A stretch of 64,000 nt of DNA, taken from sequence record NZ_CP018188.1; one strand, 5' to 3'. The stretch comes from a plasmid. Shown here one piece after another: positions 18,386 through 64,000 of this stretch. Below the pieces are notes generated by a model, which was not told the DNA's origin, made no database searches, and was given only the letters and a program-made list of their open reading frames with translations. The stretch's first letter is position 1; each line of letters begins with the position of its first letter. The translations under genes and the position numbers were made by a program.

Positions 18386-18411
18386 TAGTATGAACTTATC
18401 TCCAGATTAGT

Positions 18412-18436: not shown

Positions 18437-18503
18437 ATGTCACTGGGTTACGAATAGTGACTCCTAAGTCTATAATGAATTTATAGAGAATTATGGAGGT
18501 CTT

Positions 18504-20773: not shown

Positions 20774-21508
20774 ATGCTTAACATCTATGTTTTAGAGGAT
20801 CATATTATCCAACAAAATCGTATTGAAGAGGTTATTCATACGATTCTTAAGAAAAATAACATTAAAGTAGGGGACTTTGAGGTTTTTGACAAACCTAATC
20901 AACTGTTAGAGTCTATTGCCGAGAGAGGATCTCATCAGCTCTTTTTCTTGGACATTCAAATTAAAGATGATACTAAAAAAGGTTTGGAAGTGGCTAAGCA
21001 GATTCGCAAGAATGATCCCTATGCCAATATTGTTTTCTTCACGACCCATTCAGAGTATCTGCCCTTGACTTTTCAATACCAACTGGCAGCTCTAGACTTT
21101 ATTGATAAGTCTTTGGAGGGAGAGGATTTTCAAAAGCGTGTGGAAAGTATTATCTTATTAACCTGCAAGAAGATACAGAGTCAGAGTCCAGAAGATGCTT
21201 TTCGGATTGAGAATGTTAAGACCGTTATTCAGGTTCCCTTTCATGATATCTTGTACTTTGAGACGTCAGATATCGTTCACAAGGTTATCCTTTATACTAA
21301 AGAGGAGCAGATTGAGTTTTATGGCAGTCTCTCTCAAATTGAAAAGAGTGACCCTAGACTGTTTAAATGCCACAAATCTTTCCTTATCAATCCAGAAAAT
21401 ATCACCAAATTAGATAAAAGTACGGGGACGGTCTATTTTGAAAATGGTGGTATCTGTTATGTTTCAAAGTTGAAACTAAAGAAATTGCTTGAGAGAATTA
21501 GCCTATGA
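20774..21508 (+). CDS. LytTR-family response regulator (AgrA/ComE/BlpR-like)
   Basis: N-terminal REC domain (IYVLEDHIIQQNR...FLDIQIKDD). C-terminal LytTR domain (...FRIENVKTVIQVPFHDILYFETSD...CHKSFLINPENI). Confidence 0.85.
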   Translation: MLNIYVLEDHIIQQNRIEEVIHTILKKNNIKVGDFEVFDKPNQLLESIAERGSHQLFFLDIQIKDDTKKGLEVAKQIRKNDPYANIVFFTTHSEYLPLTFQYQLAALDFIDKSLEGEDFQKRVESIILLTCKKIQSQSPEDAFRIENVKTVIQVPFHDILYFETSDIVHKVILYTKEEQIEFYGSLSQIEKSDPRLFKCHKSFLINPENITKLDKSTGTVYFENGGICYVSKLKLKKLLERISL

Positions 21509-22824: not shown

Positions 22825-22843
22825 TTGAACCGCATCTTTTTTT
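22812..22843 (+). terminator. rho-independent terminator (copy 2)
   Basis: AGATGTGGTTTGATTGAACCGCATCTTTTTTTG, overlapping the kinase stop codon. Confidence 0.55.
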
Positions 22844-22964
22844 GTCCTTTGAAAACAAGTACCTGATCCTATATTTGTTTATTTAAATATATATATATAT
22901 ATCCAGAATACTTGCAAAGTTTCCAAAAAACTGACTTTCTAATCTCAATGAAAGAAATATTTAT

Positions 22965-23003
22965 ATTTTGTGTGAATAAATATAATAAATTTGTAATAGT
23001 GAC
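22965..23003 (+). promoter_or_regulatory. candidate LytTR-type direct repeats (TTTGTGTGAATA ... 21 bp ... TTTGTAATAGTG) upstream of CHAP hydrolase gene
   Basis: Imperfect direct repeats with 21-bp periodicity, followed by an AT-rich -10 region. Paralogous to 19790-19826. Confidence 0.3.
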
Positions 23004-23104
23004 AATTTTTAGACTTTTTGCGATTTATATTAATTTGATAGTCATAGTCGTGCTATACTTTTTTGCATAGGAGAGAGTTATGAAAAAGACTAGGAGATAT
23101 TATT

Positions 23105-33384: not shown

Positions 33385-34653
33385 ATGCAAGATATAAAAA
33401 ATAGAGATTTTACCTCACTTATTTCAAATAAAAAAAATAAAATTCATTACACTCAGAGAAATAAAATAGCTACTTATTTTGTTTCCAAAAATCAAAATAT
33501 CTCACTGTCATTTTCAGAAGAGGAGCTTATCATCTTTTATCATTTACTAAGGTTTGGTTATTTTGATAAGGAAATAGTAGACCTCATTTATACAGCAGTA
33601 ACCCGAAAATTCAAAACGCCTAATTCATGGTTTTATCGTCTTGTTGGAAAGGTTAATCATCCTATTTCAGCATGTTCGGATGCTAGAAGCGGTAAGAGAA
33701 AGCTGTATTATCTGAACAAAGGTTTTAGTACCTGGTTGCTTACTATGATTAAGGGGATTGAGAAAATTCGGTTGCTAACGACAACGACAGAATATGATAG
33801 GTCAGTATATAGCATTGTCACTAATAATCTATTAGGAGGGAAACCTCAAACCGTAAATATTCATGATCTAGAGACCAGACGATTAGTTGCTAAAATCTTA
33901 AACAAGCTTTTTGTAAAAAATAAAGACAAGTCAGTTTATGACCTAAACATCCAAGTCGTATTTCCGATTAGTCGTGTTAACCTTCTAATGGTTCCTGATG
34001 CTGTCATCTTCGTAAACGATAACCCTTTTTTTATTGAGTATGACCGAGCAACAGAACGCCAAACAATTCTACTTTCTAAAATATTTGGTTACGCAGAAGA
34101 ACCAGCATTCGAAAATTCTAGTTTATTTTTCGTTTTCGAGAGTAGTCGTAAAGATAATACGCAAGTATCTAAACGTTTAATGAACTTTTTGGAATATGTA
34201 AATGAGGTCGAGGTTGAAGGTGTGACTGGATATGACATGTTAAAGCTTAAAAATATTTCTTTATTCAGTCAAACAACAACAAATGCTTCTGACGTTATTG
34301 TCGAAATCATTCAAGAAAAGATGTTTTCAAATCATAAAGATTGGTGTGATTGCGAGGCTTATGATTTTTCTGAACTACATAAAATAGATTATCTTGTAAA
34401 GGAGATATCAGAACCTTTAGATGATGATAAATTCCAGTTATCAGCTATTGTTGAAACAGACTCCTGGGAATTGAAAGAGTACCCTATGATACCTATGGCA
34501 TATATCAAAAGTGACTTGATTCCACATTTAACTAGTCTATATGAAGAATTCTCAATAGAGTATGAACATATGATCATTGTATTCCCAAAAGAAGTCTTGC
34601 CAGAAAAAATCAAACTCCCTTTTGATGATTATTTCTTTATTGTTTATAGATAG
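33385..34653 (+). CDS. replication-relaxation (Replic_Relax)-like protein, putative
   Basis: 422 aa. Central FFIEYDRATE motif (E-x-D-R-x-T-E) is reminiscent of the Replic_Relax/PD-(D/E)xK-like family. Weak assignment. Confidence 0.3.
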   Translation: MQDIKNRDFTSLISNKKNKIHYTQRNKIATYFVSKNQNISLSFSEEELIIFYHLLRFGYFDKEIVDLIYTAVTRKFKTPNSWFYRLVGKVNHPISACSDARSGKRKLYYLNKGFSTWLLTMIKGIEKIRLLTTTTEYDRSVYSIVTNNLLGGKPQTVNIHDLETRRLVAKILNKLFVKNKDKSVYDLNIQVVFPISRVNLLMVPDAVIFVNDNPFFIEYDRATERQTILLSKIFGYAEEPAFENSSLFFVFESSRKDNTQVSKRLMNFLEYVNEVEVEGVTGYDMLKLKNISLFSQTTTNASDVIVEIIQEKMFSNHKDWCDCEAYDFSELHKIDYLVKEISEPLDDDKFQLSAIVETDSWELKEYPMIPMAYIKSDLIPHLTSLYEEFSIEYEHMIIVFPKEVLPEKIKLPFDDYFFIVYR

Positions 34654-49870: not shown

Positions 49871-50050
49871 ATGAGGATAGTAGAACAATTTAAGGCCGAT
49901 TGGAAGTCTTTAGGTTTACCAGAAAAACCATACAAGACACCAGAGGAGATTGAAATGATCAAGAACGGTAATCTTGTGTGGGCTGCGCGTGTTGAAGAAA
50001 AATTGGGGCGTAAGTTAAGCCCACGAGAACTTGATGAGATGCAGTGGTAA
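49871..50050 (+). CDS. small hypothetical protein (59 aa)
   Basis: ATG is 2 nt after the upstream stop, within a GGAGG-containing context. The track shows an overlapping antisense ORF instead. Confidence 0.3.
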   Translation: MRIVEQFKADWKSLGLPEKPYKTPEEIEMIKNGNLVWAARVEEKLGRKLSPRELDEMQW

Positions 50051-50167
50051 TTCACATCTATAAATAGTATATCGTGTAAGATACATCGTATACTGGATAT
50101 ATAAGAGAAAGAGGAAGGTAGTAATTCTAGGTTACACCTCCTCTTTTTTCTATGGAGGAGAAAAACA

Positions 50168-50524
50168 ATGACAAAAAAACATATCTATATTTATAAAAAT
50201 AAAAAAACACAGGAAGTCTTTGCAGATCTTTTTGCTAAAGACCTTCTTGAAGGCGTTACAACATTCCCTCGGATTGATAACGCTCAATCTTATTCATTTT
50301 TGGAACTCTCTTGTCTTTATCTCAAGAGAATTCTAGAAATGAAGGAGCGTAAGGTTCAAACCTTATTCGTTGAGGGAAAACCTGAACCAGCACTTGCTTC
50401 AGCATTGTTACAAGCACGTGTTATGGGACTGAATGTTGTCATCGAATTGATGACAACTGAAAGCAATAGCGAGACACAAGAAGAGTTCAAGGAGCTCGGT
50501 CTTGACGATGTTGTAATGGCGTGA
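50168..50524 (+). CDS. hypothetical protein (118 aa)
   Basis: Ribosome-binding site GGAGGAGAAAAACAATG. Confidence 0.45.
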   Translation: MTKKHIYIYKNKKTQEVFADLFAKDLLEGVTTFPRIDNAQSYSFLELSCLYLKRILEMKERKVQTLFVEGKPEPALASALLQARVMGLNVVIELMTTESNSETQEEFKELGLDDVVMA

Positions 50525-50548
50525 TTGGAATCAAGAAGGAGAAAAACA

Positions 50549-51175
50549 ATGACAGGAATCACTCAAGGTCTCTACTATATTGAAAAGGTTCACCAATATA
50601 ATACGAATATTGGTGGCTTTCCGTCAGACTTAATCAATGATCGAATTTCAGCGATTATTGCTAGTAACAAGACGGATATGCAACAAAGTTTGCGATTCAG
50701 ACCCGTTAGAAACGTGGTTTTGAATCGAGAGGGTGTATCTAATCTTCCACCTATTGAAATCCCGTTTGAATCTTCACTTTATTATGAAGTTGAAGAAATA
50801 AATCCGGGGTTATCCAAGCTAGTTGTTACAGCGGAACATGCCGCAGCCTTTCAAGAATCGGATATTCGCATGTTGGAAGCTCGCTTAACTATGTTACAGC
50901 GTGCCAAAGAATGTGGAAATTTTACGACAAGTAATTTTCCGAGTCGTTTTCCAAAGGAAGCAAGAGATGATTTAAGTCAGTTAGATCTTCTAGCTTGGGA
51001 AACAAAAGATATGCCAACATATCTTTTCTGTTTGATGGAATCAGCATTAGATAGTTACCGGGGATTTTATTCCTTGAGAGACCTAATGGAGGATGCTAAC
51101 GGCACCCTTCAGCAAGGTTATGATAAAGCTGTTTACTGGCTCTATAGTGGAGTCAAAGGACAATATGAATATTAG
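50549..51175 (+). CDS. hypothetical protein (208 aa)
   Basis: Ribosome-binding site AAGGAGAAAAACAATG (the track start 50525 is an upstream extension). Confidence 0.45.
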   Translation: MTGITQGLYYIEKVHQYNTNIGGFPSDLINDRISAIIASNKTDMQQSLRFRPVRNVVLNREGVSNLPPIEIPFESSLYYEVEEINPGLSKLVVTAEHAAAFQESDIRMLEARLTMLQRAKECGNFTTSNFPSRFPKEARDDLSQLDLLAWETKDMPTYLFCLMESALDSYRGFYSLRDLMEDANGTLQQGYDKAVYWLYSGVKGQYEY

Positions 51176-51186
51176 AAGGAGAAAAA

Positions 51187-51348
51187 ATGACTAAACATAG
51201 TTATACAGCAACATTTAAGCGTAAAGATGAAACCGTCTTTACGAAAACGTTTCTAGCTTCAGATTTGTTTGAAGCTGATGACCACGCATTGCAGTTTGCT
51301 ACTAAGCGAGATATTCTCTATCTCGACTTAGGGCCTGCAGTTCAGTAA
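51187..51348 (+). CDS. small hypothetical protein (53 aa)
   Basis: Ribosome-binding site GAAGGAGAAAAAATG. MTKHSYTATFKRKDETVF... Confidence 0.3.
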   Translation: MTKHSYTATFKRKDETVFTKTFLASDLFEADDHALQFATKRDILYLDLGPAVQ

Positions 51349-51354
51349 AAAGTT

Positions 51355-51383
51355 AAGCTACGTATTTTATACGTGGCTTTTTT
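51355..51383 (+). terminator. rho-independent terminator ending the long + strand operon
   Basis: AAGCTACGTATTTTATACGTGGCTTTTTT. Confidence 0.55.
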
Positions 51384-51550
51384 AAAAGGGTTAAACGATC
51401 TACTGGTTTTTATCGCTTGCCAAAAACTCGTGCTTTGGTGGCATCCTTATTGAAGAAATTAAACCCGAAATAGTTGATAAAAAAGAAATAAAATGCTAAC
51501 ATTTAATAAAAGTGTTAGCATTTTATTTCTTACGAAAGGATAGTGCTATT

Positions 51551-52141
51551 ATGAATAATATTGAAATGATTATGGCTTCTTTTCAACAACATCAAGGATT
51601 TTTGACCTTTCAACAAGTACTTGAAGAGAAATTACCTTACAAAATGTTGCTGAGAATGATTGATGAGGGACAAGTAGAGGTTGAAGGAAAGGGGTTATAT
51701 CGCCTCCCTGATACTTATCTGGACGAATGGTTCGTGGCGCAGCAACGTTTTTCAAAAGGAATTTTTTCTTTAGAAACAGCTCTTTGGTTACATGGATTAT
51801 CACTAACAGTTCCCTTTGAGATGACCATGAGCTTCCCTTATGGAACCAATACAAAAAATGTTAAATCAGAAGGTATACGTCCGATAGTTCTTCGTTCTTA
51901 TTACGATGAAGGAATTATTGAGCTTGAGCGACAAGTGGGTCAGAAGATTAAGGTGTACGAGCCGGAGAGGGTTTTAGCAGAGTGTTTAAGACCAGTTTAT
52001 CATGTTGATGTTCAAGTTATAGCTCCTGCATTTAAGATGTATTTTCAAAATCACAAAGTTAACTATTCAAAACTGTTTCACTATGCACAGTTATTCAAGG
52101 TGACTAACAAGTTGCAATCTTACATGGAGGTATTAACCTAA
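51551..52141 (+). CDS. abiEi: AbiEi-family antitoxin/transcriptional regulator
   Basis: N-terminal wHTH (FLTFQQVLEEKLPYKMLLRMIDEGQVEVEGKGLYRL) and C-terminal AbiEi_4-like region. The TAATG overlap with the toxin gene is the typical AbiE arrangement. Confidence 0.65.
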   Translation: MNNIEMIMASFQQHQGFLTFQQVLEEKLPYKMLLRMIDEGQVEVEGKGLYRLPDTYLDEWFVAQQRFSKGIFSLETALWLHGLSLTVPFEMTMSFPYGTNTKNVKSEGIRPIVLRSYYDEGIIELERQVGQKIKVYEPERVLAECLRPVYHVDVQVIAPAFKMYFQNHKVNYSKLFHYAQLFKVTNKLQSYMEVLT

Positions 52142-52977
52142 TGTTTTCCAATGCAAATAGCTTTAAGGCAAAGATTAAGAATATGGCTAAGGATAGAGGT
52201 ATTCCTGCCCAGCAGCTTCAGCAAAACTTCCTGATTGAACAGGTATTGAAATTGATTGCTAAAAGTTCCTATAAGGACTCTTTCATTGTTAAAGGTGGCT
52301 ATCTAATAGGACAGTTGATAGGACTAGATAAGCGAACGACAATGGATTTAGATGTGACGCTTAAAGGGACTACACTTAGCCAAGAAAATCTGATTGCCAT
52401 CTTCGAAGAGATTCTTTCGGATTCGGATGATGTCTTTTCATTTGAAGTAGATAAACTAGAGCCGATTCGCCAAGATGACGAATACGGGGGATTTTCTCTA
52501 AAACTCAATGCTACATTTGATACTTTAAGAGAGGTTGTTTTCATCGACATTACAACGGGTGATAAGATTACACCTAGAGAAATTACTTATTCGATGCCAT
52601 CTCTGTTTGCAAATGAAACCATTGAGGTTTGGACTTATAATTTGGAAACTGTCCTAGCTGAAAAATTGGAAACGATCATTAGCCGAGGAGTAGCATCAAC
52701 ACGTCCTCGTGATCGTTATGACCTTTTTACCTTGTATCATATCAGAAAAGATGAGATAAATTTCGATGTGTTGCGTGAAGCCCTGGCCAATACTGTAGAA
52801 AAACGAGGAAGTAAAGAGGCTATTGATATTTGGGAAAGTCAGCTAAATAGTATTGAGACTGATGAGTATCAAAAGCAACTTTGGACACGTTATCAAAGAC
52901 AATTCAAATATGCACAAGATATTTCTTTTGAGAAATCAGTTCAGATTGTTAGAGAACTCATGACAACTATTATGTAA
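52141..52977 (+). CDS. abiEii: AbiEii/AbiGii-family nucleotidyltransferase toxin (DUF1814)
   Basis: N-terminus MFSNANSFKAKIKNMAKDRGIPAQQLQQNFLIEQVLKLIAKSSYKDSFIVKGGYLI matches the AbiEii signature (SxKARLKN.A...G...Q...Y..ERFL.R...S.Y.D.FILKGG). Confidence 0.8.
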   Translation: MFSNANSFKAKIKNMAKDRGIPAQQLQQNFLIEQVLKLIAKSSYKDSFIVKGGYLIGQLIGLDKRTTMDLDVTLKGTTLSQENLIAIFEEILSDSDDVFSFEVDKLEPIRQDDEYGGFSLKLNATFDTLREVVFIDITTGDKITPREITYSMPSLFANETIEVWTYNLETVLAEKLETIISRGVASTRPRDRYDLFTLYHIRKDEINFDVLREALANTVEKRGSKEAIDIWESQLNSIETDEYQKQLWTRYQRQFKYAQDISFEKSVQIVRELMTTIM

Positions 52978-53284: not shown

Positions 53285-54244
53285 GTGGAAAAAGAAACGA
53301 TTATATTTCAGCGTAATGAGTTTGATAATTATTATAGAAGTGTGTTAAATGGTGGTAAATATGTTGATCCTGATTGTAGAGAGGACATTGATACACCCTA
53401 CTATAATTTTTTAACGGAATTTTTAAGAAAAAGAGAGAGTGAAAGTAATTATAAAAATAAATATTCTTTTATTCCCCCTAAACTTGCTAAACTAACTAGT
53501 GAGAGTGAGAAAAAGATCAAAGATAATGATAAATATAAAATTGTTGTGAAGCAAAATGCCGAATTGCTGTTCAGACTTACTTCAGATCAATTTGGTTTTT
53601 CGGGAGATGAATATGTATATCAGCAATCCTATGGTCATCTCAAGTATCCTTTAGCTAGAATTAATTATTTATCTAAAAATGAATCTATTGATGAGAGAGA
53701 GAGGATTTTAAATAAACTAATTAATTATGTGAAAAATACAAGAACGCTTGGTGGATCTTTTATCTGGCCTACGCCTAAGAAAAGTGAAGGTTTTCGAAAT
53801 AGCAAATATAATATGAGTCGTGGTGTAGGTTCTTATATAGAAGATCGAGTAGATTTAACTCTTTTAGAGATTAAACATGCACTAGATGGGGAATATCATA
53901 AATCTCAACATAAAGATGATATTCTATATACTCTTTATATTAATAACACAGATGGTATACGAACATGGTTGGACCATTTTGAGACATTTGAGAAATTTGT
54001 TGATTATTTTATGTTTAATAATTTTATTGAAAATGGAATGCCACTTAACATCTTGACAGGTAAGGCTATTTGTGAAGAAGAAGTAAAAAAATATAAAAAT
54101 AAAACATGTCAGATCAAGAATCTCAAATTAAGTGAACTGTTAGAGATGATTGAGAGATTAGAAAACATGATAATTAATAGAACATGTCTGATGGAAGAAC
54201 ATATAAAGGATTATATATTGCATGTTCATCATAATATTTTTTAG
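53285..54244 (+). CDS. hypothetical protein (319 aa), very low GC
   Basis: GTG start. No motifs. Confidence 0.35.
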   Translation: MEKETIIFQRNEFDNYYRSVLNGGKYVDPDCREDIDTPYYNFLTEFLRKRESESNYKNKYSFIPPKLAKLTSESEKKIKDNDKYKIVVKQNAELLFRLTSDQFGFSGDEYVYQQSYGHLKYPLARINYLSKNESIDERERILNKLINYVKNTRTLGGSFIWPTPKKSEGFRNSKYNMSRGVGSYIEDRVDLTLLEIKHALDGEYHKSQHKDDILYTLYINNTDGIRTWLDHFETFEKFVDYFMFNNFIENGMPLNILTGKAICEEEVKKYKNKTCQIKNLKLSELLEMIERLENMIINRTCLMEEHIKDYILHVHHNIF

Positions 54245-54387
54245 ATTCCTTTCATATCAAGGGGTTAGCCCTTGTTTGTTACTTTTTGATGCCTTATTCT
54301 TTAAAAATTATCAAAGGCAGAAGCTACCTCTTTTTGTTGAGTTGGGAATAAATGTGAGTATACATTTATTGTTGTGTTGATAGAGCT

Positions 54388-54915
54388 GTGTCCAAGACGT
54401 TTCATAAGTGTGAAGAAAATATAGTCCTTCCCCTCTCCATTTCTAAGACCTTGAAAGAAATAGAAGTCGGTGAGCATAAACGAGTTAGTGAATCGCTACA
54501 ATTTTTAGTTGAACTTTTTCATGGTGAGTTTGGAGGAAAAATAACTAATTACAAAGAATCACGTCTAATGGCTAAAATAATTAAGATAGAAGATAGTTTT
54601 AATAAAATAAAAGAACGACTTGATGAGGAATTTGATTATGTCGAAGTTAATAATGGAGATGAAAGTTTACTCATTAAGTATTTGGAGAATATCGCTGATA
54701 AATTAGTTAAAGATTCGTCTAGGCATTTTAAATCATTCATACTTGCTAATCTATATGAAGATTGGGATATACATTGTAAAAAAGGCTCTTTTTATGATAA
54801 GTTTGATATTGAGTTCCTCAAGTTTAAAGCAGAAATGGAAAATCAAATAAGTAATTTTGTGGAGGAAAAGCAGTTTTCCGATTTAGATAAGTTGTTACTA
54901 AATGAATACTTATAA
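54388..54915 (+). CDS. hypothetical protein (175 aa), very low GC
   Basis: GTG start. It is preceded by a 9-bp perfect inverted repeat, AATAAATGT-n6-ACATTTATT. Confidence 0.35.
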   Translation: MSKTFHKCEENIVLPLSISKTLKEIEVGEHKRVSESLQFLVELFHGEFGGKITNYKESRLMAKIIKIEDSFNKIKERLDEEFDYVEVNNGDESLLIKYLENIADKLVKDSSRHFKSFILANLYEDWDIHCKKGSFYDKFDIEFLKFKAEMENQISNFVEEKQFSDLDKLLLNEYL

Positions 54916-54989: not shown

Positions 54990-55112
54990 ATGCAAGGTTT
55001 TTGTATGGTGAAATTGCTTATCTTGATGAATAAGCTGTTTTTGAGTTCTTCTAAAAAATCAGCTGTCTTAGAATATCAGTCACTGTGTTTGGTGCGGAAA
55101 ATTAAAAATTGA
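54990..55112 (+). CDS. small Cys-containing peptide ORF (40 aa), candidate signalling/precursor peptide
   Basis: Ribosome-binding site GAGGAGAGTGGTAATG. MQGFCMVKLLILMNKLFLSSSKKSAVLEYQSLCLVRKIKN. Followed by a strong 13-bp-stem terminator. Confidence 0.25.
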   Translation: MQGFCMVKLLILMNKLFLSSSKKSAVLEYQSLCLVRKIKN

Positions 55113-55171
55113 TCTAAAAATATGATTTTAGGTCTTTGCGAGCTCAGACAGTATATACACACTATCGAAAA

Positions 55172-55228
55172 AATAATCATCAGCAAAAGTTAGATCGACA
55201 CTTTTGAGCTGATGATTATTTTATATTT
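55172..55228 (+). terminator. rho-independent terminator (13-bp perfect stem AATAATCATCAGC ... GCTGATGATTATT)
   Basis: Long perfect inverted repeat followed by a T-rich tract. Confidence 0.55.
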
Positions 55229-55400
55229 TGGTGAGTGTTTCCCAATCCCTTATAAAATAAAAATTTTATCAAACAAAATATTTTACTATTTACTACACTC
55301 AAAACAACATAATAATACAAATGAAATTTTATCTTAACAATTTAAGGTATACTATAACCATCAACAGAGATGTTGAAATAATTCAAAGGAGGAAGCTATC

Positions 55401-55511
55401 ATGCTTAAATTTTCTACAAAGAAAACCAAAAAGGCAGGCTGTGTGAGTGTAGGTGCACTAGTTTCAGTTTCAATTGGTCACTACATTAAAGAAGTTAAGA
55501 GTACGGTATAG
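55401..55511 (+). CDS. candidate RiPP precursor peptide (36 aa)
   Basis: Strong ribosome-binding site AAAGGAGGAAGCTATCATG. MLKFSTKKTKKAGCVSVGALVSVSIGHYIKEVKSTV. Followed by a hairpin attenuator and then the CPBP/radical-SAM/ABC genes. Confidence 0.35.
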   Translation: MLKFSTKKTKKAGCVSVGALVSVSIGHYIKEVKSTV

Positions 55512-55644
55512 CTTACTTTTTGAGTATCGGAGAAGTACAGAGAAATGTTTGTAGTGATGGAAATTGTTAAAAATCATCATTGTTGAAGTATTATGCTTAA
55601 TTATTTCTTGTTACAAAAATTTCTATGTACAATCAATCGTTTAG

Positions 55645-55675
55645 GTAGGCAATTGTAAAATTAGCCTACTTTTTA
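55645..55675 (+). terminator. hairpin terminator/attenuator between precursor and downstream operon
   Basis: GTAGGCAATTGTAAAATTAGCCTAC plus T5. Confidence 0.5.
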
Positions 55676-55687
55676 TTTAAAGTTGCT

Positions 55688-56254
55688 ATGAAAGAAAATA
55701 GAAAACTCCAGATATTAGTACAGTGTTTATTTCAAGTAATGATTTCGAATATTTGCTTGATATTATATGTCTTATTTTGTTCAGTTTTTTTAAAAACTCA
55801 GAGCATACTGTTATCATTAAGTGCCCCTACAATGGTCGCTTTGGTAGTGCAGCCAATATGTTTAGAAAAAATTTTGTTTAAAAGTAAAGTCAATTATTCC
55901 CAACATATTATTGTTGTTATATCGGCCTTAATAATTATTTTGTTTTGTTCCCTTGTTAACATACCTGAAAAAACTATATTGATTTTACATTTTATTTTGA
56001 TAGGCTTTTCTGAAGAAATATTATATAGAATGATTATCTTAGATAGGATGAAGTCTTCTTATAATATCTTAGAATCGATAGTGATTACTGCGCTTATCTT
56101 TGCCTTTTTAGGTCATATATCGGAACCTATTTTAGATAATCTAATGGTAAGATTTCCTTTGGGAATATTTTTAGCATTTATAAGAATAAAGTTTAATAAT
56201 ATTGGAATTCCAACGATTATTCATACTTTATATAATGTTTTAGTAACTTTTTAG
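55688..56254 (+). CDS. CPBP-family intramembrane metalloprotease / bacteriocin self-immunity (Abi/CAAX) protein
   Basis: Motifs EEILYR (EExxxR), FAFLGHISE (FxxxH) and HTLYNVLV (HxxxN) in a polytopic membrane protein. Confidence 0.65.
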   Translation: MKENRKLQILVQCLFQVMISNICLILYVLFCSVFLKTQSILLSLSAPTMVALVVQPICLEKILFKSKVNYSQHIIVVISALIIILFCSLVNIPEKTILILHFILIGFSEEILYRMIILDRMKSSYNILESIVITALIFAFLGHISEPILDNLMVRFPLGIFLAFIRIKFNNIGIPTIIHTLYNVLVTF

Positions 56255-56266
56255 AAGAGGTTTTTT

Positions 56267-56695
56267 ATGAAAATTAAATTGGGTTCAATATTTTTATTTT
56301 GCTTACTTATTTTGACATTCATCAATTATAATTTTATTTCAACTTATAATTTGTTTACGTTTTATATATTGTTGATGCTTCTTCCTTCAATTTTGTATTC
56401 AAATTGTTGTGTGATTCTCTTAAGACACTTCCATAAAGGGACAACAAGATATTACTTTTTATCAACCATTTTACATTTTTTATTGAATTGGATGATAATT
56501 CACCGATTGTTGACAAAGGAAGTGTTTAATAGCCTTGTCGAAAATACAATGAAAATTAATCCTAATGTAGGTAACAATATTTCATTAGACTTGAGTATAT
56601 CGTCATTTTTTGTTATTAGTCTATTTGTATTTTTGTTAATGCTTATTGAAAATTATTTTATAAGAAAAGTTGAGGAGAAATATGTTTCTAAATGA
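56267..56695 (+). CDS. integral membrane protein (hypothetical)
   Basis: Multiple transmembrane helices. Confidence 0.4.
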   Translation: MKIKLGSIFLFCLLILTFINYNFISTYNLFTFYILLMLLPSILYSNCCVILLRHFHKGTTRYYFLSTILHFLLNWMIIHRLLTKEVFNSLVENTMKINPNVGNNISLDLSISSFFVISLFVFLLMLIENYFIRKVEEKYVSK

Positions 56696-57099
56696 TAATA
56701 TTTCAGTAATGAAAACAGACGAAATGTACCTACTATTCAATTTTAGCAACGGGATAGTTGCTGGGGTAGATAGTCAAGCAATTGAATTTCTAAAACGAGT
56801 AAAAAATTATCAGTTAAATTGTAACGATTTAACAGATGAAGAAAAAGAATTTTTTGCCTATCTTGTAGAAAATGATTTCATTTCTGATGTAGAATTTAAG
56901 AATGAGCAAACCCCAATAACTGCCTATCTACATTTAACTAATAAATGTAATTTGCATTGTGTAGGTTGTTATTCTTTCGATGAGCGAAGAAATAGATGTG
57001 AAGATCTATCAACAGAAGAGATATTAAATGCAATTGACCAACTTTCTGATGTTGGAATTCAAAACCTAGTATTCTCTGGAGGAGAACCTTTATTAAGAA
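56682..57099 (+). pseudogene. radical SAM/SPASM maturase gene, 5' part (interrupted by IS)
   Basis: CNLHCVGCY (CxxxCxxC) and the SGGEPLLR motif run directly up to the IS inverted repeat at 57100. Confidence 0.7.
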
Positions 57100-57180
57100 G
57101 GCTATGTCACAACAAACAGTTGATAAATAGCCATTTTTATAGGGGAGTATCAGAACTCCCCTACAAACTGTTATTTGCAG

Positions 57181-57675
57181 TTATCTATACTCATTTGGAA
57201 TTTCGATATGAAGTGTCTCACACAATAACTTCACATCATGTGCATCATTTTCATCAAACTCGTATCCCAGATGGAACATTACTTGACTATATGGTTCAAT
57301 ACAGGAAACCTCTATTTCCTCAATTCTTCCTTTACCCGAAAAAGTTTCTACCGGAAAACAATCCCCATCATAAAGAATTTCACCTTCGTCCGTATATTCA
57401 AAACAATGCAAATCAATAATTCTGTTTTTCAAATCTTCCCATACAGTATGGTTCAATGTTGTATATTCCATCTTAATCTCATAAAAGCCATTAGCTTTCA
57501 TTATTTCTATAAAGTTCTGATAATCGTTCTTTTCTACAAAAATGTCAATATCATTATGGGCTCTTGACTGATATCCAAGAAGAGCATCTACACCCCAGCC
57601 ACCATCAAGAAAGACTTTAATCTCCGCATCTATTGCAAATTGAAGAATCTGTTTTACATCTGTTATATTGACCAT
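57181..57675 (-). CDS. lnu(C): lincosamide nucleotidyltransferase Lnu(C)-like (164 aa)
   Basis: MVNITDVKQILQFAIDAEIKVFLDGGWGVDALLGYQSRAHNDIDIFV... is a nucleotidyltransferase-fold protein. It lies immediately downstream of the IS1595 transposase inside the IS, as described for ISSag10. Confidence 0.7.
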   Translation of the reverse strand: MVNITDVKQILQFAIDAEIKVFLDGGWGVDALLGYQSRAHNDIDIFVEKNDYQNFIEIMKANGFYEIKMEYTTLNHTVWEDLKNRIIDLHCFEYTDEGEILYDGDCFPVETFSGKGRIEEIEVSCIEPYSQVMFHLGYEFDENDAHDVKLLCETLHIEIPNEYR

Positions 57676-57698
57676 CTTATCATCTCCACAAATTCTAA

Positions 57699-58742
57699 TT
57701 AGGCGACCAGAGGAACTGCTGGTCTGTTTGATAAATCTCTGCATTTAGCAGTTTTCAATGTTGCCAAAACGAAAGTTAAGAAGATGTTCCTTTTCTCCAT
57801 GTCGCTTTCTTTGGCGTAATTTACAAGGTTATTCCACACAAGATAGTTGTTCAGATACTTGGTAGAAACACCGTTAAAGCCACGCATAAACCTCTTTAGC
57901 TGGCTATGGTAGCTATTGATATGTTGGATATTATAAATGCCTTTCTTGGCTTTGCCAGTCTTTAACTGCACAAGGTCAATGCCATTGGCATTTGTAAATC
58001 TCACATAGGAGTTCATCTTGTCCGTAACAAGAGTGGAATTGGTCTTAATCCTACCATCATAAATATGATGTAAATCTCTTGTAGAAACTCTACCAGTATT
58101 CGTAATCTTGGAGATAGACAAGCCATTCCTATTAACCGCACAAGGAACACATACCTTTTCTTGGGACAAGCCTCTGATATGTGTAGAATGACCACGCTTA
58201 TGAGCCTTGCGTGGCATAGCAAATGTCTTACTCTTGCTATGATTGCCCTTGTACGAGATGGCGAAAAAAGTTTCGTCAGCCTCAATAATGCCGTCAAGGG
58301 TAACATCGTCTGCCATATTCTGAAGTGCATCCAAAATCTTGTGTCTCCAAAGGAATGCGGTGTTTCTGTGAATCCCACAAGCAACAGCAGTCTTACGAAT
58401 GGATAAGCCATTCATCATACAATCAATGTACTGCTCCCACACGGACAAGTCTTTTCTTGTACCAGACACAATGGAGTTCGTAGCAATCACGAAGGACTTG
58501 CCACAATCCTTACATACATATCGCTGTGTGCCATCTTTACGATGACCATTGCGAACCACATGGATACAGCCACAAAGAGGGCATACACGACCATTTGCAA
58601 AGCGTTCCTTTGCTACGAAATCTTCAATATTCAAAGACTTTACAAAGGCAGGACTTAAAAGCATTGTTTTAAGGCTTTCCTGCTCTGCGACAGTCAACTT
58701 ACCGATAATATCTAATGCGTCTTTGATAGTAGGCATATCCAA
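57699..58742 (-). CDS. IS1595-family transposase
   Basis: N-terminal zinc finger (CPLCGCIHVVRNGHRKDGTQRYVCKDCGKSF) and a DDE-type catalytic region. 347 aa. Confidence 0.85.
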   Translation of the reverse strand: MDMPTIKDALDIIGKLTVAEQESLKTMLLSPAFVKSLNIEDFVAKERFANGRVCPLCGCIHVVRNGHRKDGTQRYVCKDCGKSFVIATNSIVSGTRKDLSVWEQYIDCMMNGLSIRKTAVACGIHRNTAFLWRHKILDALQNMADDVTLDGIIEADETFFAISYKGNHSKSKTFAMPRKAHKRGHSTHIRGLSQEKVCVPCAVNRNGLSISKITNTGRVSTRDLHHIYDGRIKTNSTLVTDKMNSYVRFTNANGIDLVQLKTGKAKKGIYNIQHINSYHSQLKRFMRGFNGVSTKYLNNYLVWNNLVNYAKESDMEKRNIFLTFVLATLKTAKCRDLSNRPAVPLVA

Positions 58743-58821
58743 TTACCTCCTTCGGTGGTACTGTTTCTTACTATTATTATACGCTATTTCTCGTCAAAAT
58801 CAACCATTTGTTGTGACAGAG

Positions 58822-59643
58822 CCATTAAGAAAAAACATTCTTCAAATAGTGGAATATGCTAAAATAGTTGCTAAAATTCCAAATGTAATATTAATAACTA
58901 ATGGAACTATTTTTAATAAAAATATACTTTCAGAACTATCAAAATTTGTGGATACTGTTTCTGTTTCATTAGATACATACTGTTCGGATAGTGAACCATA
59001 TCTCAGAGATAAAGGAATATTTGACAAGATTATGCGGTCAATTTCTTGGTTAAAAGAATCGGGAAATAATGTCAATATTATTCCAACAATTCATCACTTG
59101 AATTCAAGTAATCTCCTTGAGTATGTAAAACTTGCAAAGGAAATAGGAACAACGATTAGTTTCAGTATTCTCAGTGCATGTTTTGAAGGCGAGTTAATGT
59201 CATATCTTCCCGATAACACTGATTTAATAAATATTAGTAAGTTTATGATTGAATCTGATGCACCAATCAATGATAGTGCCCTAGAGGATAAAACTTTAGT
59301 AGCTAGGAATTACTGTGGAGCTGGGACCTCAATGATTGCCATAGGCACTCAAGGTAATGTCTATCCGTGCCACATGTTGATGTATGATGAGTACTGTATA
59401 GGAAATATAAAGTACGATTCAATAAACAAGATGCGAGAGAAATCTGCTAATGCAAGGTTATTCAAATCATTGAATGTAGATAAAATAGAGGGTTGTTCAC
59501 AATGTCAATTCCGATATCTATGTGGAGGAGGCTGCAGAGCTCGTTCAAAATTGAAATTTGACGTAGTAGATAAAGTAGATCCATATTGTCGATTATTTAA
59601 AGCATACTATAATAAAGTTGCGGCGGAAATTATTTCTGATTAG
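58822..59643 (+). pseudogene. radical SAM/SPASM maturase gene, 3' part (SPASM domain)
   Basis: Continues the frame after the target-site duplication. Auxiliary-cluster cysteines are present (CGAGTSMIAIGTQGNVYPCHM ... CSQCQFRYLCGGGCRARS). The track ORF 58549.. is an artefactual upstream extension through the IS end. Confidence 0.7.
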
Positions 59644-59654
59644 GGAGAATGTCT

Positions 59655-61352
59655 ATGAAAAGGGTCTTAAGGGAAGAACGAAATAAAATAGTAGTATTTA
59701 TTATCTCTACGTTTATATTGGGATTAGTTGAAGTATCGTTTGCTACAATAATTCAAAAATTCATTGATTCCCTAGAGTCATCAGATATTACAAAGTTTAA
59801 ATTAGCAATTTTTTCCTTTACAGTTTTTCTTGTAGTAAACTATATCTTGAATCTTTTTGTAATATGGATTCAATCAGTGCTTACTAAGAATATTCATCTG
59901 TATTTAAAATCAAATTTAGCTAAATATTTTTTATCGCTTGGTTATTGTGATTTTTCTGAAACAACTACGGGTGAAAAGATGAATTGCTTTGATTATAAAA
60001 TATCGCTAATTGAACAGTATTTTTTAGATAGCATTTTTTCAATGATACAATCAACTTTGATGTTGATTATTGCGAGTGTTTATTTATATCAAATTAGCCC
60101 GTTGATTTGCATAATTGTATTTGCTTTAGGGATTGTATCTATGCTGGTTCCCTTGTTACTTGGTAAAAAATTAAATGATTTAGTTTCTGAAAATGTAGTT
60201 CTAAGCGGAGAGTATCTACATTTTATAAAAGAGATGTTTCAAGGAATACTGGCGGTCAAGACCTTTCAGAAGGAGCGGACATTTTTTGAGAAATTTGAAG
60301 AGAAGTTATTTAAATTTGAACAGAATGCTCAATTGTTAAATGTAAAAAATGGTGAGTATAATCAAATCAGTGGTTTTTTTCAGTATGTAATCATTATTTC
60401 TTGTTTATGCTTTGGTGGATTTTTAGTGTTGAATCAAGGCTTGACATTAGGAAAGATGATTGCGGTTACACAAATTTCAAATTTGATAGTTGGTCCAATT
60501 CAACAGATTGGTTCTTCAGTTATTGATATTTTGGCTAGTAAGGATATAACGAAAGAAATGTCAGATATTTTTTTAAAACAATCAATCGTTTTAGATAAAA
60601 AAGTATATCAAAAAGGTTTTGATAATATAAGGATTTCTACTTGTAGTGTCACAAAAGATAATAAAAAGCTCTTGGGTGGTGTTAATATATCTCTTGAATA
60701 TGGTAAAAAATATTGTATTATTGGTCCAAATGGTAGCGGAAAAACTACATTTGGACGATTAATGTTAAATTTGTTAAATGATGTTGAAGAACGAGTATTT
60801 ATAGATAGAGAAGCTAGTAATTTAGAAGATGTCGCCAAATTGATTTCATATGTACCGCAAAATAGTATTGCTTTTAAAGGTACTTTGAAAGATAATATTA
60901 CATTGTTTGAACGCTACGATGATAAAATTATTGATGAGGTAATTAGAGACGTTAATTTAAACAATAAAAGTAAAGAGATTCAAATGATTTCGGAAAACGG
61001 TGACAATATTTCTGGTGGAGAATTGAGAAAAGTCAATATAGCTAGAGCATTTTTAGAGGATAGACCAATAATACTAGTTGATGAATTTGAGTCAGCTCTG
61101 GATGAAGAATCATCAAAACTAATAGCTGATAAATTTTTGAGTTCAGAAAAAACGGTGATAATGATTTCTCACAATTTAGAGCAGTCATTTTTACAAAGGT
61201 TTGATTCCATAATTTTTATAGAAAATGGGGAAGTTACTGCAATGGGAAAATACGAAGTATTATTAAAAAATTGTGATAACTTCTATAAATATTTAATTCA
61301 AACTGCCCCTAGTGGAGGTAATATTCATGAATACAATACTACGAGCGTGTAA
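59655..61352 (+). CDS. ABC transporter, fused permease/ATP-binding protein (peptide exporter-type)
   Basis: Six N-terminal transmembrane helices. Walker A GPNGSGKTT, signature ISGGELRKVNIARAF, Walker B ILVDE. Confidence 0.75.
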   Translation: MKRVLREERNKIVVFIISTFILGLVEVSFATIIQKFIDSLESSDITKFKLAIFSFTVFLVVNYILNLFVIWIQSVLTKNIHLYLKSNLAKYFLSLGYCDFSETTTGEKMNCFDYKISLIEQYFLDSIFSMIQSTLMLIIASVYLYQISPLICIIVFALGIVSMLVPLLLGKKLNDLVSENVVLSGEYLHFIKEMFQGILAVKTFQKERTFFEKFEEKLFKFEQNAQLLNVKNGEYNQISGFFQYVIIISCLCFGGFLVLNQGLTLGKMIAVTQISNLIVGPIQQIGSSVIDILASKDITKEMSDIFLKQSIVLDKKVYQKGFDNIRISTCSVTKDNKKLLGGVNISLEYGKKYCIIGPNGSGKTTFGRLMLNLLNDVEERVFIDREASNLEDVAKLISYVPQNSIAFKGTLKDNITLFERYDDKIIDEVIRDVNLNNKSKEIQMISENGDNISGGELRKVNIARAFLEDRPIILVDEFESALDEESSKLIADKFLSSEKTVIMISHNLEQSFLQRFDSIIFIENGEVTAMGKYEVLLKNCDNFYKYLIQTAPSGGNIHEYNTTSV

Positions 61353-62193
61353 TTTAAGTAAATCATTTGGTTTACAAGAGGTGTTAACTAATATCAATTT
61401 TGACATTCAATCAGGAGATATAGTTGGCTTGATTGGAAAAAATGGCTGTGGAAAGACTACTCTAATGAAGATGATATTGGGTTTTACATCACAAACCAAG
61501 GGTTATATCCAATTTGAAGGTGATCCGAATTATCATACTAAAAGGAAGACATTAAATAAAATCGGTTTCCTCCTAGATTGTAGGCTGTTTGAAGATTTCT
61601 CTGCATATGATAATTTGAAATTATTCTCTATGTACTCTTCAACAGTTAATGAAGAAAATTTAGATGACCGAATTGAGAGGTTGTTAAAGTTTGTTGGTTT
61701 AGATAATAGTAAAAAACTAGTAAAATCTTATTCTTTTGGTATGAAACAGAGATTGGGTTTGGCACTGGCATTACTAGATGATCCTGAATTTTTGATTTTA
61801 GACGAACCATTTGTCGGTTTGGATCCCACCGGAGTTAGAGTTCTTCTAGATTATATTGTAAAGTTACGTCGGGAAAAGGGTGTTACGATACTAATCTCAT
61901 CACATCAGTTACATGAAATTGAAGAAATTTGTGACTATTTCTTATTTATAAATGAAAAGAGTATTGAAAAACATTCTAAACTAGGGGAAAATCAAATAGT
62001 TATTACTTTGGGACATCTAGTACCAGAGTTGGAACAGGACTTAAGAGATATGATTGATATGAAAGAAGGTCAGATAACTTTACCAAAGGATATGTCGTTG
62101 CTGAATTCAACATTAAAGCTTATTTACAAGTATAATAGTGAATTAAAAGATATCACAATAAATGATTCTACAGAAGAGTTATTTAGGGGGTGA
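61327..62193 (+). CDS. ABC transporter ATP-binding protein (ABC-2 type)
   Basis: GKNGCGKTTLMKMI Walker A. YSFGMKQRLGLALALL signature. Ribosome-binding site GGAGG. Confidence 0.8.
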   Translation: MNTILRACNLSKSFGLQEVLTNINFDIQSGDIVGLIGKNGCGKTTLMKMILGFTSQTKGYIQFEGDPNYHTKRKTLNKIGFLLDCRLFEDFSAYDNLKLFSMYSSTVNEENLDDRIERLLKFVGLDNSKKLVKSYSFGMKQRLGLALALLDDPEFLILDEPFVGLDPTGVRVLLDYIVKLRREKGVTILISSHQLHEIEEICDYFLFINEKSIEKHSKLGENQIVITLGHLVPELEQDLRDMIDMKEGQITLPKDMSLLNSTLKLIYKYNSELKDITINDSTEELFRG

Positions 62194-62197
62194 AAAA

Positions 62198-62950
62198 ATG
62201 CAATCGATAATATTAGCAGAACTATATAAATTACTGAAACGGAAAAATTTTATCATATTAGCAGTGTTATCTTTGTGGTCGTTAATTTACGGATTAGGCG
62301 CTTTTTTACATTGGGATTTTGTAAAAATTGGTGCTAAGTTGGATTTAGTTACCTTTATTACAACGATGTGGACGTTTTTATTGATATTAACTATTCCACT
62401 ATTATTAATTTTGTACACTGCTTCCTTTATTTTAGGAGGAGAAATCCAAGGAGGGCAAATTTTACTAGAAGTAAACCGAGTATCTAGTAAGAAAACGTTG
62501 ATTATTTCTAAGTATATAGTTGTCATCTTATCAATCTTATTTTTGTATGTACTGAACTGCTTATCATCACTCATCACTTATATTTGTTTTTTATCTCGAA
62601 GTGAGTTTGGTTACGTACATTTTTGGGAACTGCATTCTACAAATATGCAATCAATAATAATTAGTTTGGTAAATTTAAGTTTCATTATTTTATTGGCTAG
62701 TGTAGCCTTTTACTTATCGTTATATGTTTCGGCAATAGTAGCCGCATTTGCAAGTTTAGGTGTTTATTTTTTATGTCAACTTTTGTCATATATTGCTATT
62801 ATTTCTAAATTTGTTCCGGGATACTTTTTTATTGTATCGAATTATCGTTTTTCATTGGAATTATCTATAGTTCACTTGTTAGGTTATTTCTTGATTTGTC
62901 TGTTATTATTGATTGCTACTACGAAAGGATTTGAAAAGAAAGCATTATGA
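62198..62950 (+). CDS. ABC-2-type transporter permease
   Basis: Polytopic membrane protein translationally coupled to the ATPase. Confidence 0.6.
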   Translation: MQSIILAELYKLLKRKNFIILAVLSLWSLIYGLGAFLHWDFVKIGAKLDLVTFITTMWTFLLILTIPLLLILYTASFILGGEIQGGQILLEVNRVSSKKTLIISKYIVVILSILFLYVLNCLSSLITYICFLSRSEFGYVHFWELHSTNMQSIIISLVNLSFIILLASVAFYLSLYVSAIVAAFASLGVYFLCQLLSYIAIISKFVPGYFFIVSNYRFSLELSIVHLLGYFLICLLLLIATTKGFEKKAL

Positions 62951-62987
62951 GTGATATAATATTTCAAAAAGGAATTCATGAAAGCAC

Positions 62988-63716
62988 ATGTATAAAATAG
63001 CAATTTGTGATGATGATAGTCTACAAGTTAGTCATTTAGAAACTCAAATTTCAAAGTATTTTGATGAGATTAATGTTCACTATGAGATTGATGGCTATTA
63101 TAAAGGAAATCGTCTAGTAAAGGCGATGAGCACTCAGGCAGATAACTATCAATTGATATTTTTAGATATTGAAATGGAGGAAATTAATGGTATTGAAACT
63201 GCAAAATTATTGAGAAATTTAGATAAGAGTTTCGTCTTAATCTATGTTACAAGTTATGAGCAATATGCTTTAGAGAGTTTTGAAGTATCTCCGTTTCGTT
63301 ATCTTATAAAACCTGTATCTACTGAAAAATTGAGAGACGTTCTTAGTGATGTTCTCGTAGAATTAACTGCTAAACAGAAATTCTTATTTTATCAAGTAGG
63401 TATGGAACATTTTCAAGTAATCTTAGATAATATTGTGTGCTTATATTCTGAATTTGGTCGAAAAATCCACCTTGAGTTGGTTAATGATAATAGCGTGTTG
63501 TTTTATGGAAAAATATCAACACTTGAAGAAGAGTTACCTCAAACACATTTTATTAGAGTCAATAGCGGGGCAATAATTAATCTAGACTATGTTGTATCTT
63601 TTAATAGAAATGAAGTAACGATGATAAATGGTGACTGTATTACTATTAGTAGAAGTCGAAAGAAAACAGTAGTAGCAACTTACAATCATTTTATTGAGAG
63701 GAGTTTTGGATTATGA
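62988..63716 (+). CDS. LytTR-family response regulator
   Basis: REC domain (KIAICDDDSLQV...FLDIEMEEINGIE) plus a C-terminal LytTR DNA-binding domain. Confidence 0.8.
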   Translation: MYKIAICDDDSLQVSHLETQISKYFDEINVHYEIDGYYKGNRLVKAMSTQADNYQLIFLDIEMEEINGIETAKLLRNLDKSFVLIYVTSYEQYALESFEVSPFRYLIKPVSTEKLRDVLSDVLVELTAKQKFLFYQVGMEHFQVILDNIVCLYSEFGRKIHLELVNDNSVLFYGKISTLEEELPQTHFIRVNSGAIINLDYVVSFNRNEVTMINGDCITISRSRKKTVVATYNHFIERSFGL

Positions 63717-64000
63717 TTGATTTGTTTAAAACAATTGGAATCCTCTCTCTTTTTTTATTTCAAAGCTTTGTTATTTGGATTTATTTACTACATTTTTTTG
63801 TTGTCAGAATACCTAAAATGAGATTTTATTGTTTTATTTTTTGTATTTATTTTGTTGGTAGAACATCAATAACAGTGGATCAGACCACGTTTATTGATTT
63901 AAAAATTTTTTCTTTATTTTGTACTTTCTTGATTCTTTTCTTCTTTTTATCTGGGGAGGTAATGAAAAAAGTATTTCATTTCTTATTTCTGACTTTTTGG
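63713..64000 (+). CDS. membrane sensor protein, probable cognate histidine kinase (5' partial)
   Basis: ATGA overlap with the response-regulator stop. N-terminal hydrophobic helices. The rest lies beyond the window. Confidence 0.35.
   Translation, partial: MIDLFKTIGILSLFLFQSFVIWIYLLHFFVVRIPKMRFYCFIFCIYFVGRTSITVDQTTFIDLKIFSLFCTFLILFFFLSGEVMKKVFHFLFLTFW

Follow-up and report, generated by a model that had tools for sequence, protein, structure and literature searches.

A probable radical-SAM-modified peptide cluster interrupted by tISSag10 (MTnSag1) on a Streptococcus salivarius-type megaplasmid

The maturases CteB, StsB, PapB, AlbA and GggB/QmpB share an architecture in which a domain resembling the RRE, the recognition element for RiPPs (peptides that are made by the ribosome and modified after translation), is joined to a radical S-adenosylmethionine (radical-SAM) barrel and a SPASM domain. 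In sactipeptide and ranthipeptide systems, a short cysteine-containing precursor is encoded alongside such an enzyme, and StsB is a Cys-to-Gly sactionine synthase (PMC10288494). The known streptococcal network of radical-SAM peptides is defined by shp/rgg genes, and its named subfamilies are distinguished by the motifs TQQ, WGK/tryglysin, streptide Lys-Trp, GGG, RRR, QMP and NxxC (PMC9389541). The stretch of DNA analyzed here (the window) comprises 64,000 nucleotides of plasmid record NZ_CP018188.1. From position 55401 to its end, the window encodes what is probably a RiPP cluster for a small peptide modified by a radical-SAM/SPASM enzyme, recently inactivated by a copy of tISSag10 (MTnSag1) in the enzyme gene.

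The enzyme of this locus has the same three-part architecture as the maturases named above, and a short precursor with Cys is again encoded next to it. Within the wider peptide family, repeated C-x3-G units would permit unnested rings similar to those of the type-2 sactipeptides. The locus differs from the sactipeptide and ranthipeptide systems in that the enzyme lies below all family cut-offs, one Cys is present in the streptococcal peptide, the leader, of ~12-13 residues, is very short and starts with an invariant MLF, and a CPBP protease and an ABC pair of the protection type are among the linked genes. With the shp/rgg-associated peptides it has in common the host genus, a small radical-SAM/SPASM operon and an exporter distantly like GggC. 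However, no shp or rgg gene accompanies it and the family reaches far beyond the streptococci. No Rgg-type gene was found from 53000 to the window end, where a LytTR regulator and an AgrC-like kinase are encoded instead, and the precursor motif matches none of the subfamilies named in PMC9389541. An earlier interpretation of this DNA (the sequence-only reading) had described a typical streptococcal locus; this description has to be replaced by that of a cross-phylum family which is not shp/rgg-regulated.

Two further systems provide useful comparisons. The epipeptide operon epeXEPAB (yydFGHIJ) of Bacillus subtilis follows the same logic of a short peptide, a radical-SAM enzyme, a membrane protease and an ABC ATPase and permease for self-protection. 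The peptides are unrelated, the epe operon protease belongs to another family than CPBP, the epimerase EpeE is a weak fold match to the maturase (rank 50, E 1.5e-9), and the invariant Cys of the present family points to cross-linking rather than epimerization. The LanFE(G)/LanRK modules resemble the locus in that the best match of its ATPase is a lantibiotic-protection ABC subunit, and in that an ABC pair and a two-component system at the operon end are kept when the biosynthetic genes are deleted. In contrast to these modules, the ATPase scores below the cut-off, the regulator is of the LytTR/AgrA-like and not the OmpR-like type, and there are no lanthipeptide enzymes. The pneumococcal "streptosactin" cluster was considered because of its low G+C content and rejected: it contains the genes ssaA, ssaCD, ssaX1-3 and ssaP and has its closest relatives in S. 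intermedius and Parvimonas (PMC6120550), and since both the gene list and the closest relatives differ, it is a different locus.

The maturase gene lies in two parts, both on the plus strand, as are the other genes of the cluster with its promoter motif, ribosome-binding site and hairpin. The 5' part (56682-57099) covers codons 1-139 with the RRE-like domain, the CxxxCxxC motif and the GGE motif, and the 3' part (58832-59643) encodes the remaining barrel and the SPASM domain. The break lies one base into the codon that follows R139 of ...SGGEPLLR, in agreement with the earlier claim of a split right after GGEPLLR. Joined without the element and one copy of the target-site duplication, the two parts form an open frame of 409 aa. 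Comparison with uninterrupted orthologous clusters had been proposed as a check, and such clusters exist: intact homologs 98-99% identical to the restored frame, with the precursor alongside, occur in many streptococci. One intact protein that stands for 554 sequences (P0001) is 98% identical, and the copies in species genomes are 99% (S. raffinosi), 96% (S. ovuberis) and 94% (S. orisratti) identical. The truncated maturase of 245 aa is on record once, as a hypothetical protein of a 188-kb Streptococcus salivarius plasmid.

Outside of the element, the cluster is 99.5-99.8% identical to intact copies with zero gaps, and the insertion is therefore both recent and the sole lesion. This agrees with the proposal that an insertion sequence bearing lnu(C) has knocked out the pathway, in so far as the maturase gene is interrupted and the remainder undamaged. 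Since the half of the enzyme with the SAM cluster is parted from the barrel/SPASM half, the strain would be expected to make no modified peptide and to have gained lincosamide inactivation. It may represent a recent and clean case of a resistance element destroying a competition or signaling trait.

The inserted element (57100-58823, minus strand) is 1724 bp in length and is bounded by 25-nt terminal inverted repeats at 57100-57124 and 58799-58823. These repeats are imperfect (22/25 matches; 16/18 over the first 18 nt), so that the length of 1714 bp and the perfect 18-bp repeats first attributed to the element both required correction. The 8-bp target-site duplication ATTAAGAA was described correctly, with exact copies on the left (57092-57099) and the right (58824-58831). 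The element carries two genes, each of which exceeds its curated cut-off as expected for an IS1595-family element bearing lnu(C). One is lnu(C) itself, a lincosamide nucleotidyltransferase of 164 aa (57181-57675, minus strand; NCBIfam NF000141, 380 bits vs. a cut-off of 300), and the other is an IS1595-family (ISSag10) transposase of the DDE type with an unbroken reading frame (57699-58736, minus strand; NF033547, 196 vs. 75 bits). Annotated ISSag10/lnu(C) copies in plasmids of Glaesserella, Cetobacterium and Ligilactobacillus share 99.8-99.9% identity with the element over its whole length, and the ISSag10 transposase is likewise annotated in these plasmids.

MTnSag1 is the lnu(C) mobilizable transposon of Streptococcus agalactiae. 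As published, MTnSag1 (= tISSag10) is 1.7 kb long with 25-bp inverted repeats, 8-bp duplications and a preference for AT-rich targets (PMC5704250), and it is mobilized by Tn916 (PMC5704250, PMC6233522). The present copy is alike in size class, repeats, 8-bp duplication, AT-rich target, transposase and lnu(C); the sole difference is its site, a radical-SAM maturase gene on an S. salivarius-type megaplasmid. It is a standard copy and full member of tISSag10/MTnSag1, and the insertion as such is ordinary. A common insertion site with the Enterococcus faecalis plasmid pL8 was suggested by a match that extends 12 and 16 bp past the element. This idea was dropped since the pL8 duplication TTTTATAA differs and the flanks are unrelated, leaving an AT-rich resemblance. 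The presence of lnu(C) on a mobilizable transposon in the megaplasmid of a human oral and gut commensal constitutes a plausible reservoir of lincosamide resistance.

The restored maturase contains the Pfam domains Radical_SAM (PF04055, E 1.5e-24), SPASM (PF13186, E 7e-8) and Fer4_12. Among 31 homologs, the CxxxCxxC motif (C89/C93/C96) and seven C-terminal cysteines (C301, C319, C361, C364, C370, C374 and C392) are invariant. The AlphaFold model (pLDDT = 89.8) begins with strands at residues 7-11, 16-20 and 25-29 followed by helices at 31-41 and 52-63. By sequence profile and by fold alike, the closest solved protein is the thioether synthase CteB, with an alignment starting at residue 7, and the next matches are anSME (anaerobic sulfatase-maturating enzyme), SuiB, PqqE and SkfB. 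From the predicted fold and the alignment to CteB, the N-terminus resembles an RRE-like peptide-recognition domain; a Pfam PqqD match was not obtained for it. Of the curated NCBIfam models, StsB fits best, with a score of 137 bits (cut-off, 625). Membership in StsB was rejected because of this distance and because the StsB precursor pattern, a CxCxC...GxGxG hairpin, differs. Judged by its domains and scores, the enzyme is a RiPP maturase of no characterized subfamily.

The precursor gene (55401-55511) encodes 36 aa, MLKFSTKKTKKAGCVSVGALVSVSIGHYIKEVKSTV, and is conserved next to intact enzymes. An identical precursor adjoins the intact enzyme in loci L007, L008 and L088-L097, the last being ten metagenome contigs of 52-356 kb, and an identical or near-identical one is found beside every intact streptococcal copy of the cluster. 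In the more distant cluster of locus L003 (81% DNA identity), the precursor frame has accumulated 5 synonymous vs. 3 conservative changes and the flanking spacer is full of indels. The streptococcal precursor cluster is present on >1,600 contigs, including those of S. salivarius and S. anginosus. A lack of conservation beside intact clusters had been named as a result that would speak against the 36-aa frame; the opposite was observed, and by its conservation the frame is a genuine precursor gene.

A family search was made over all short open reading frames of 80 loci that encode homologous maturases. It returned 45 members in 33/80 loci, all on the strand of the enzyme and at a median distance of 346 bp; by chance, 25% of short reading frames would be expected to fall within the same range and strand. 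The hosts are Enterococcus, Kandleria, Staphylococcus, Bacillus, Lysinibacillus, Thermoanaerobacter, Clostridia and Eggerthellaceae, and the genes are often in tandem with two to four per locus. The members follow the pattern M-L-[F/K]-x8-10-C-x3-G-x3-5-[C]-x3-G. In 32 aligned precursors from two phyla, the M, the L, the first Cys, the Gly at +4 and the second Gly are invariant, and two Cys are present in 28/32. The common streptococcal precursors have a single Cys, with S, Q, A or P at the position of the second, while a rarer streptococcal-type variant retains it. The single Cys noted in the sequence-only reading is therefore true of this copy, and the comparison refines it to a state derived, as the alignment indicates, from a motif that normally has two. 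Between genera, the precursor outpaces the enzyme in identity (78% vs. 56% in E. canintestini and 69% vs. 47% in E. termitis).

A database search for further relatives was run from the alignment of family members, and the source databases label the members merely "hypothetical" or "uncharacterized". No Pfam or NCBIfam model matches any member, which together with the absence of the motif from the named subfamilies agrees with the earlier statement that the core matches no known family. A full-text literature search with the motif strings of the family gave no relevant paper, and no description of the cluster was found in the literature searched; it may be listed in one of the large radical-SAM RiPP atlases. 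A peptide family for which no model or description was found, with relatives in many gut genera, is of interest because its compact gene set could lead to new radical-SAM chemistry or to a signaling peptide of a new kind.

Two side observations concern the family outside of the streptococci. Tandem precursors of the Clostridia type occur in three to four copies that are identical in L021 (14934-15331) and diverged in L039 (11230-11697), L020 (2521-3129) and L038 (11282-11849), and some of these paralogs have Ser for the second Cys, like the streptococcal peptides. In the loci of Eggerthellaceae/Coriobacteriia (L022-L087), the enzyme and MLF-type peptides are found without a nearby CPBP protease, ABC pair or exporter. 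In that phylum, export may therefore take another route, or the role of the system may be another one.

The precursor gene is preceded by a strong ribosome-binding site, AAAGGAGG (55385-55392), at a spacing of 8 nt from the ATG, as had been recognized from the start. A -10 element, TATACT (55348-55353), is good and the corresponding -35 element is weak. Approximately 50 nt upstream of the -10 lies a conserved motif, TACTATTTACTACA (55284-55297), with the core TTACTACA, which is a candidate operator for the LytTR regulator. Upstream of the precursor, the core stands unchanged in six loci (streptococcal and two of Enterococcus), and it is likewise unchanged in the deletion variant of strain FDAARGOS_192 that is described below; the 14-mer occurs once in the window, which by itself is not significant. 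A -10 without a good -35 plus a conserved motif is an anatomy that fits an activator-dependent promoter. Upstream at 55170-55222, a perfect 15-nt inverted repeat (AAAATAATCATCAGC / GCTGATGATTATTTT) is followed by a T-run; it is conserved in the loci of FDAARGOS_192, S. ovuberis and S. orisratti and is likely a terminator that isolates the cluster promoter from upstream genes.

The hairpin reported after the 36-aa frame was recovered just 5' of the CPBP gene. It is terminator-like, with a stem-loop at 55644-55670 (-11 kcal/mol) and a U-run tail, TTTTTATTT, that extends the feature to 55675. The hairpin is kept, with changes in the stem, in L009 (-15.1 kcal/mol) and L003. A strict terminator scanner flagged no site, but folding and cross-species comparison did show the hairpin. 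No RNA family was identified by Rfam anywhere in the window.

All of the genes listed in the sequence-only reading were found at or near the positions proposed for them. The first after the hairpin encodes a CPBP (Rce1-like) intramembrane protease of 188 aa (55688-56254; PF02517, E 7.9e-14, 52 bits vs. a cut-off of 22.4). It had been described as a protease/immunity gene; the CPBP assignment is confirmed, and immunity is one possibility among others. Since the three catalytic motifs EExxxR, FxxxH and HxxxN/D are all intact in the translation (EEilYR, FlgH and HtlyN), the protein could be a leader protease. A shorter call for this gene in L090 reflects a different choice of start and not a truncation. 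A hydrophobic membrane protein of 142 aa (56267-56695) is conserved directly upstream of the maturase and is found in loci of Streptococcus, Enterococcus, Staphylococcus caeli and Kandleria; it has no Pfam or NCBIfam match.

The maturase is followed by an ABC exporter of 567 aa (59649-61352) with fused membrane and ATPase domains (Pfam ABC_membrane and ABC_tran) and no peptidase domain. Its NCBIfam matches, all below the cut-off, are bacteriocin exporters and GggC, which exports streptosactin (128 bits vs. a cut-off of 750). Next are the ATPase of a two-part ABC system (61327-62193) and its membrane permease partner of 250 aa (62198-62950), which adjoins the ATPase in related loci and has no family match. 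The best NCBIfam match of the ATPase is the lantibiotic-protection model TIGR03740, of which it is not a member (190.9 vs. 309.75 bits), yet it may still act like a transporter of that type. Of the two ABC exporters first proposed, the one at 59649-61352 stands, and the second system resembles lantibiotic-protection transporters rather than an exporter. The cluster then continues with a LytTR-family response regulator (62988-63716; Pfam Response_reg and LytTR) and the start of a histidine kinase (63713-64000), represented by the 96 codons of a hydrophobic membrane part before it is cut by the window end. Full-length homologs of the kinase are 417 aa long with a GHKL HATPase_c_5 domain.

Across many Firmicutes genera, the CPBP protease, the ABC ATPase and permease, and the exporter travel with the maturase and are therefore core to the system. 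For the CPBP protease, co-occurrence extends to most of the Firmicutes loci. The LytTR regulator and kinase accompany the maturase in part of the family.

Two other forms of the cluster were observed to be damaged. In the metagenome copy L088, the exporter gene (12523-14220) has a premature stop at codon 111. In Streptococcus sp. FDAARGOS_192 (L002, NZ_CP020429.2, megaplasmid-like, 6001-6104), the genes for the ABC ATPase, permease, regulator and kinase follow immediately on the promoter and ribosome-binding site of the precursor, in a direct fusion. The junction lies within similar sequences between ribosome-binding site and ATG, GGAGGAAGCTAT-CATG (55388-55403) and GGAGGTAATATTCATG (61314-61329), and the variant looks like a deletion from the precursor through the exporter in which the protection and sensing genes were kept. 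Together with the insertion, the exporter nonsense mutation and the FDAARGOS_192 deletion are, on comparison of these copies, three independent losses of production functions. The nonsense and deletion variants besides the insertion could mean that production is lost while protection is kept.

From the arrangement of the genes, a working scheme for the intact cluster may be proposed. The anatomy described above would allow one promoter to drive the operon, with a leaky terminator after the precursor gene keeping precursor transcripts in excess. The RRE-like domain would bind the short leader that starts with the invariant MLF/MLK, and the maturase would form a cross-link between the invariant Cys and a carbon of the backbone or of a side chain, with the invariant Gly at +4 as the likeliest acceptor, to give a small thioether ring. 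One ring would be expected in the streptococcal form and two in most relatives. The CPBP protease may then trim the peptide and/or protect the producer, and the ABC exporter, having no peptidase domain, would secrete the product. Self-protection would be provided by the lantibiotic-protection-like ABC pair. The AgrC-like kinase and LytTR regulator would switch the operon on, possibly by sensing the product itself.

Several results weigh against this picture of the cluster. The maturase is far under the cut-off of every characterized maturase, including PapB (109 vs. 340 bits), the SCIFF maturase (84 vs. 425) and AlbA (75 vs. 850), and it is likewise below those of AhbD (123 vs. 500), MftC (115 vs. 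265) and WgkB (109 vs. 650). Given that it lies below all family cut-offs, the reaction type is a guess from distant similarity and the invariant Cys. With the single Cys of the streptococcal precursors and the varying residue at the lost position, part of the ancestral chemistry is gone, and a repeat search of the precursor promoter detected no direct repeats or repeated LytTR-type half-sites. A reaction other than thioether formation, be it epimerization or a carbon-carbon or ether cross-link, would be in keeping with the sub-cut-off scores against all thioether-synthase models, the matches to MftC and WgkB, and the parallel in gene architecture to epeXEPAB. A His-Tyr pair that follows the motif in streptococcal and enterococcal peptides, and the Ser that replaces the second Cys in some members, point the same way. 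Such a reaction is nevertheless unlikely. All 32 aligned precursors, from two phyla, share the first Cys and the Gly at +4, sequence and fold are both closest to CteB and not to EpeE, and the lost Cys position is not kept as Ser but varies among S, Q, A and P. The presence of seven rather than eight invariant Cys in the SPASM half would also fit an open iron site for a substrate thiol. It is very improbable, and contradicted by the conservation data, that the 36-aa frame arose by chance beside a non-RiPP radical-SAM enzyme such as an anSME or an enzyme of cofactor synthesis. The SPASM half does resemble anSME (Foldseek E ~1e-17) and heme and mycofactocin enzymes are among the NCBIfam matches, but the scores of AhbD and MftC given above are far below their cut-offs and the enzyme is not a member of the anSME model TIGR03942 (90.5 bits vs. 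349). An RRE-like domain, which is atypical of the anSME family, is present in the maturase; no sulfatase gene is nearby; and in two phyla the enzyme is accompanied by conserved members of the peptide family, often as several genes in tandem. An anaerobic sulfatase maturase, which the sequence-only reading had raised against its own interpretation, is ruled out by the TIGR03942 score and the RRE-like domain.

The interpretation as an inactivated RiPP cluster is compatible with a product that serves mainly as a pheromone for the AgrC-like kinase and LytTR regulator and not as an antimicrobial, which is possible though not the favored role. The kinase belongs to the GHKL/HATPase_c_5 type that senses peptides and is paired with a LytTR regulator, the operon contains no visible gene for a separate pheromone, and a single conserved promoter motif precedes the precursor. 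The megaplasmid variant has also retained the promoter, ABC pair, regulator and kinase after loss of the biosynthetic genes. On the other hand, the two-component system is found in part of the family only, while the protection-type ABC pair and CPBP protease, which are typical of toxic peptides, are far more widely linked, and the ATPase scores best against the model of a lantibiotic-protection transporter. A broader proposal, offered tentatively and with more doubt than confidence, is that a distinct RiPP family of Firmicutes and Eggerthellaceae, for which no description was found, is made up of the MLF...C-x3-G...C-x3-G peptides with their enzymes; it would be common in human S. salivarius and S. 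anginosus and have small Cys-to-Gly(+4) rings or a new link. The single-ring streptococcal product would double as an autoinducer sensed by the AgrC-like kinase and LytTR regulator, and would in that case be a pheromone modified by a radical-SAM enzyme and read by a two-component system in place of Rgg. Production would have been lost repeatedly, by insertion, nonsense mutation or deletion, with sensing and protection kept.

The window at 30500-54200 is 90-93% identical to S. salivarius megaplasmids. Backbone genes at 5422-17211 and 33385-34653 encode a Rep3-type initiator (15748-17211) and PcfJ-like, DUF3854 and Replic_Relax proteins, a set that fits a megaplasmid. The G+C content of the cluster is 26-31% (55000-57000 and 59500-64000) vs. 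~37% for the backbone (50000-52500), which is consistent with a foreign origin. In the ten metagenome contigs L088-L097, the cluster follows genes for a tyrosine integrase, a DUF3173 protein, Rep and an FtsK-like protein, a make-up that indicates an integrative mobilizable element. The sample names of these contigs may point to studies of the human infant gut. In these contigs, one att-like repeat lies after the kinase gene and att-like repeats are found by a ybaB-like gene; in L090, the intervals concerned in the element are ~1400-9500 and 18280-18510.

A remnant of the integrase 3' end with an att-like element end is present in the window at 54210-54477 on the minus strand and is 90-93% identical to the integrase end of the intact elements in L088, L090 and L091. 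The integrase portion measures 244 bp (54210-54453), with a 58-aa reading frame that runs on to 54477 and ends ...GHSSINTTINVYSHL. The integrase portion borders on DNA that lies 945 bp upstream of the precursor, and the ~7.4 kb of mobilization genes found in L088-L097 are absent. As reconstructed from this junction, the S. salivarius-type megaplasmid carries a decayed integrative mobilizable element with the cluster as its cargo. A DUF6994-family gene (53285-54244) is directly upstream of the integrase remnant and has no counterpart in the element's chromosomal versions.

A second pair of the LytTR type is likely encoded elsewhere in the window, within 20774-24946, by a 244-aa reading frame and a 439-aa kinase with a GHKL HATPase_c_5 domain. 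In the same interval, the pair is followed by a secreted protein of 613 aa with a YSIRK signal and CHAP, SH3_5 and GBS_Bsp-like domains, which may be a regulated cell-wall hydrolase or a large bacteriocin.

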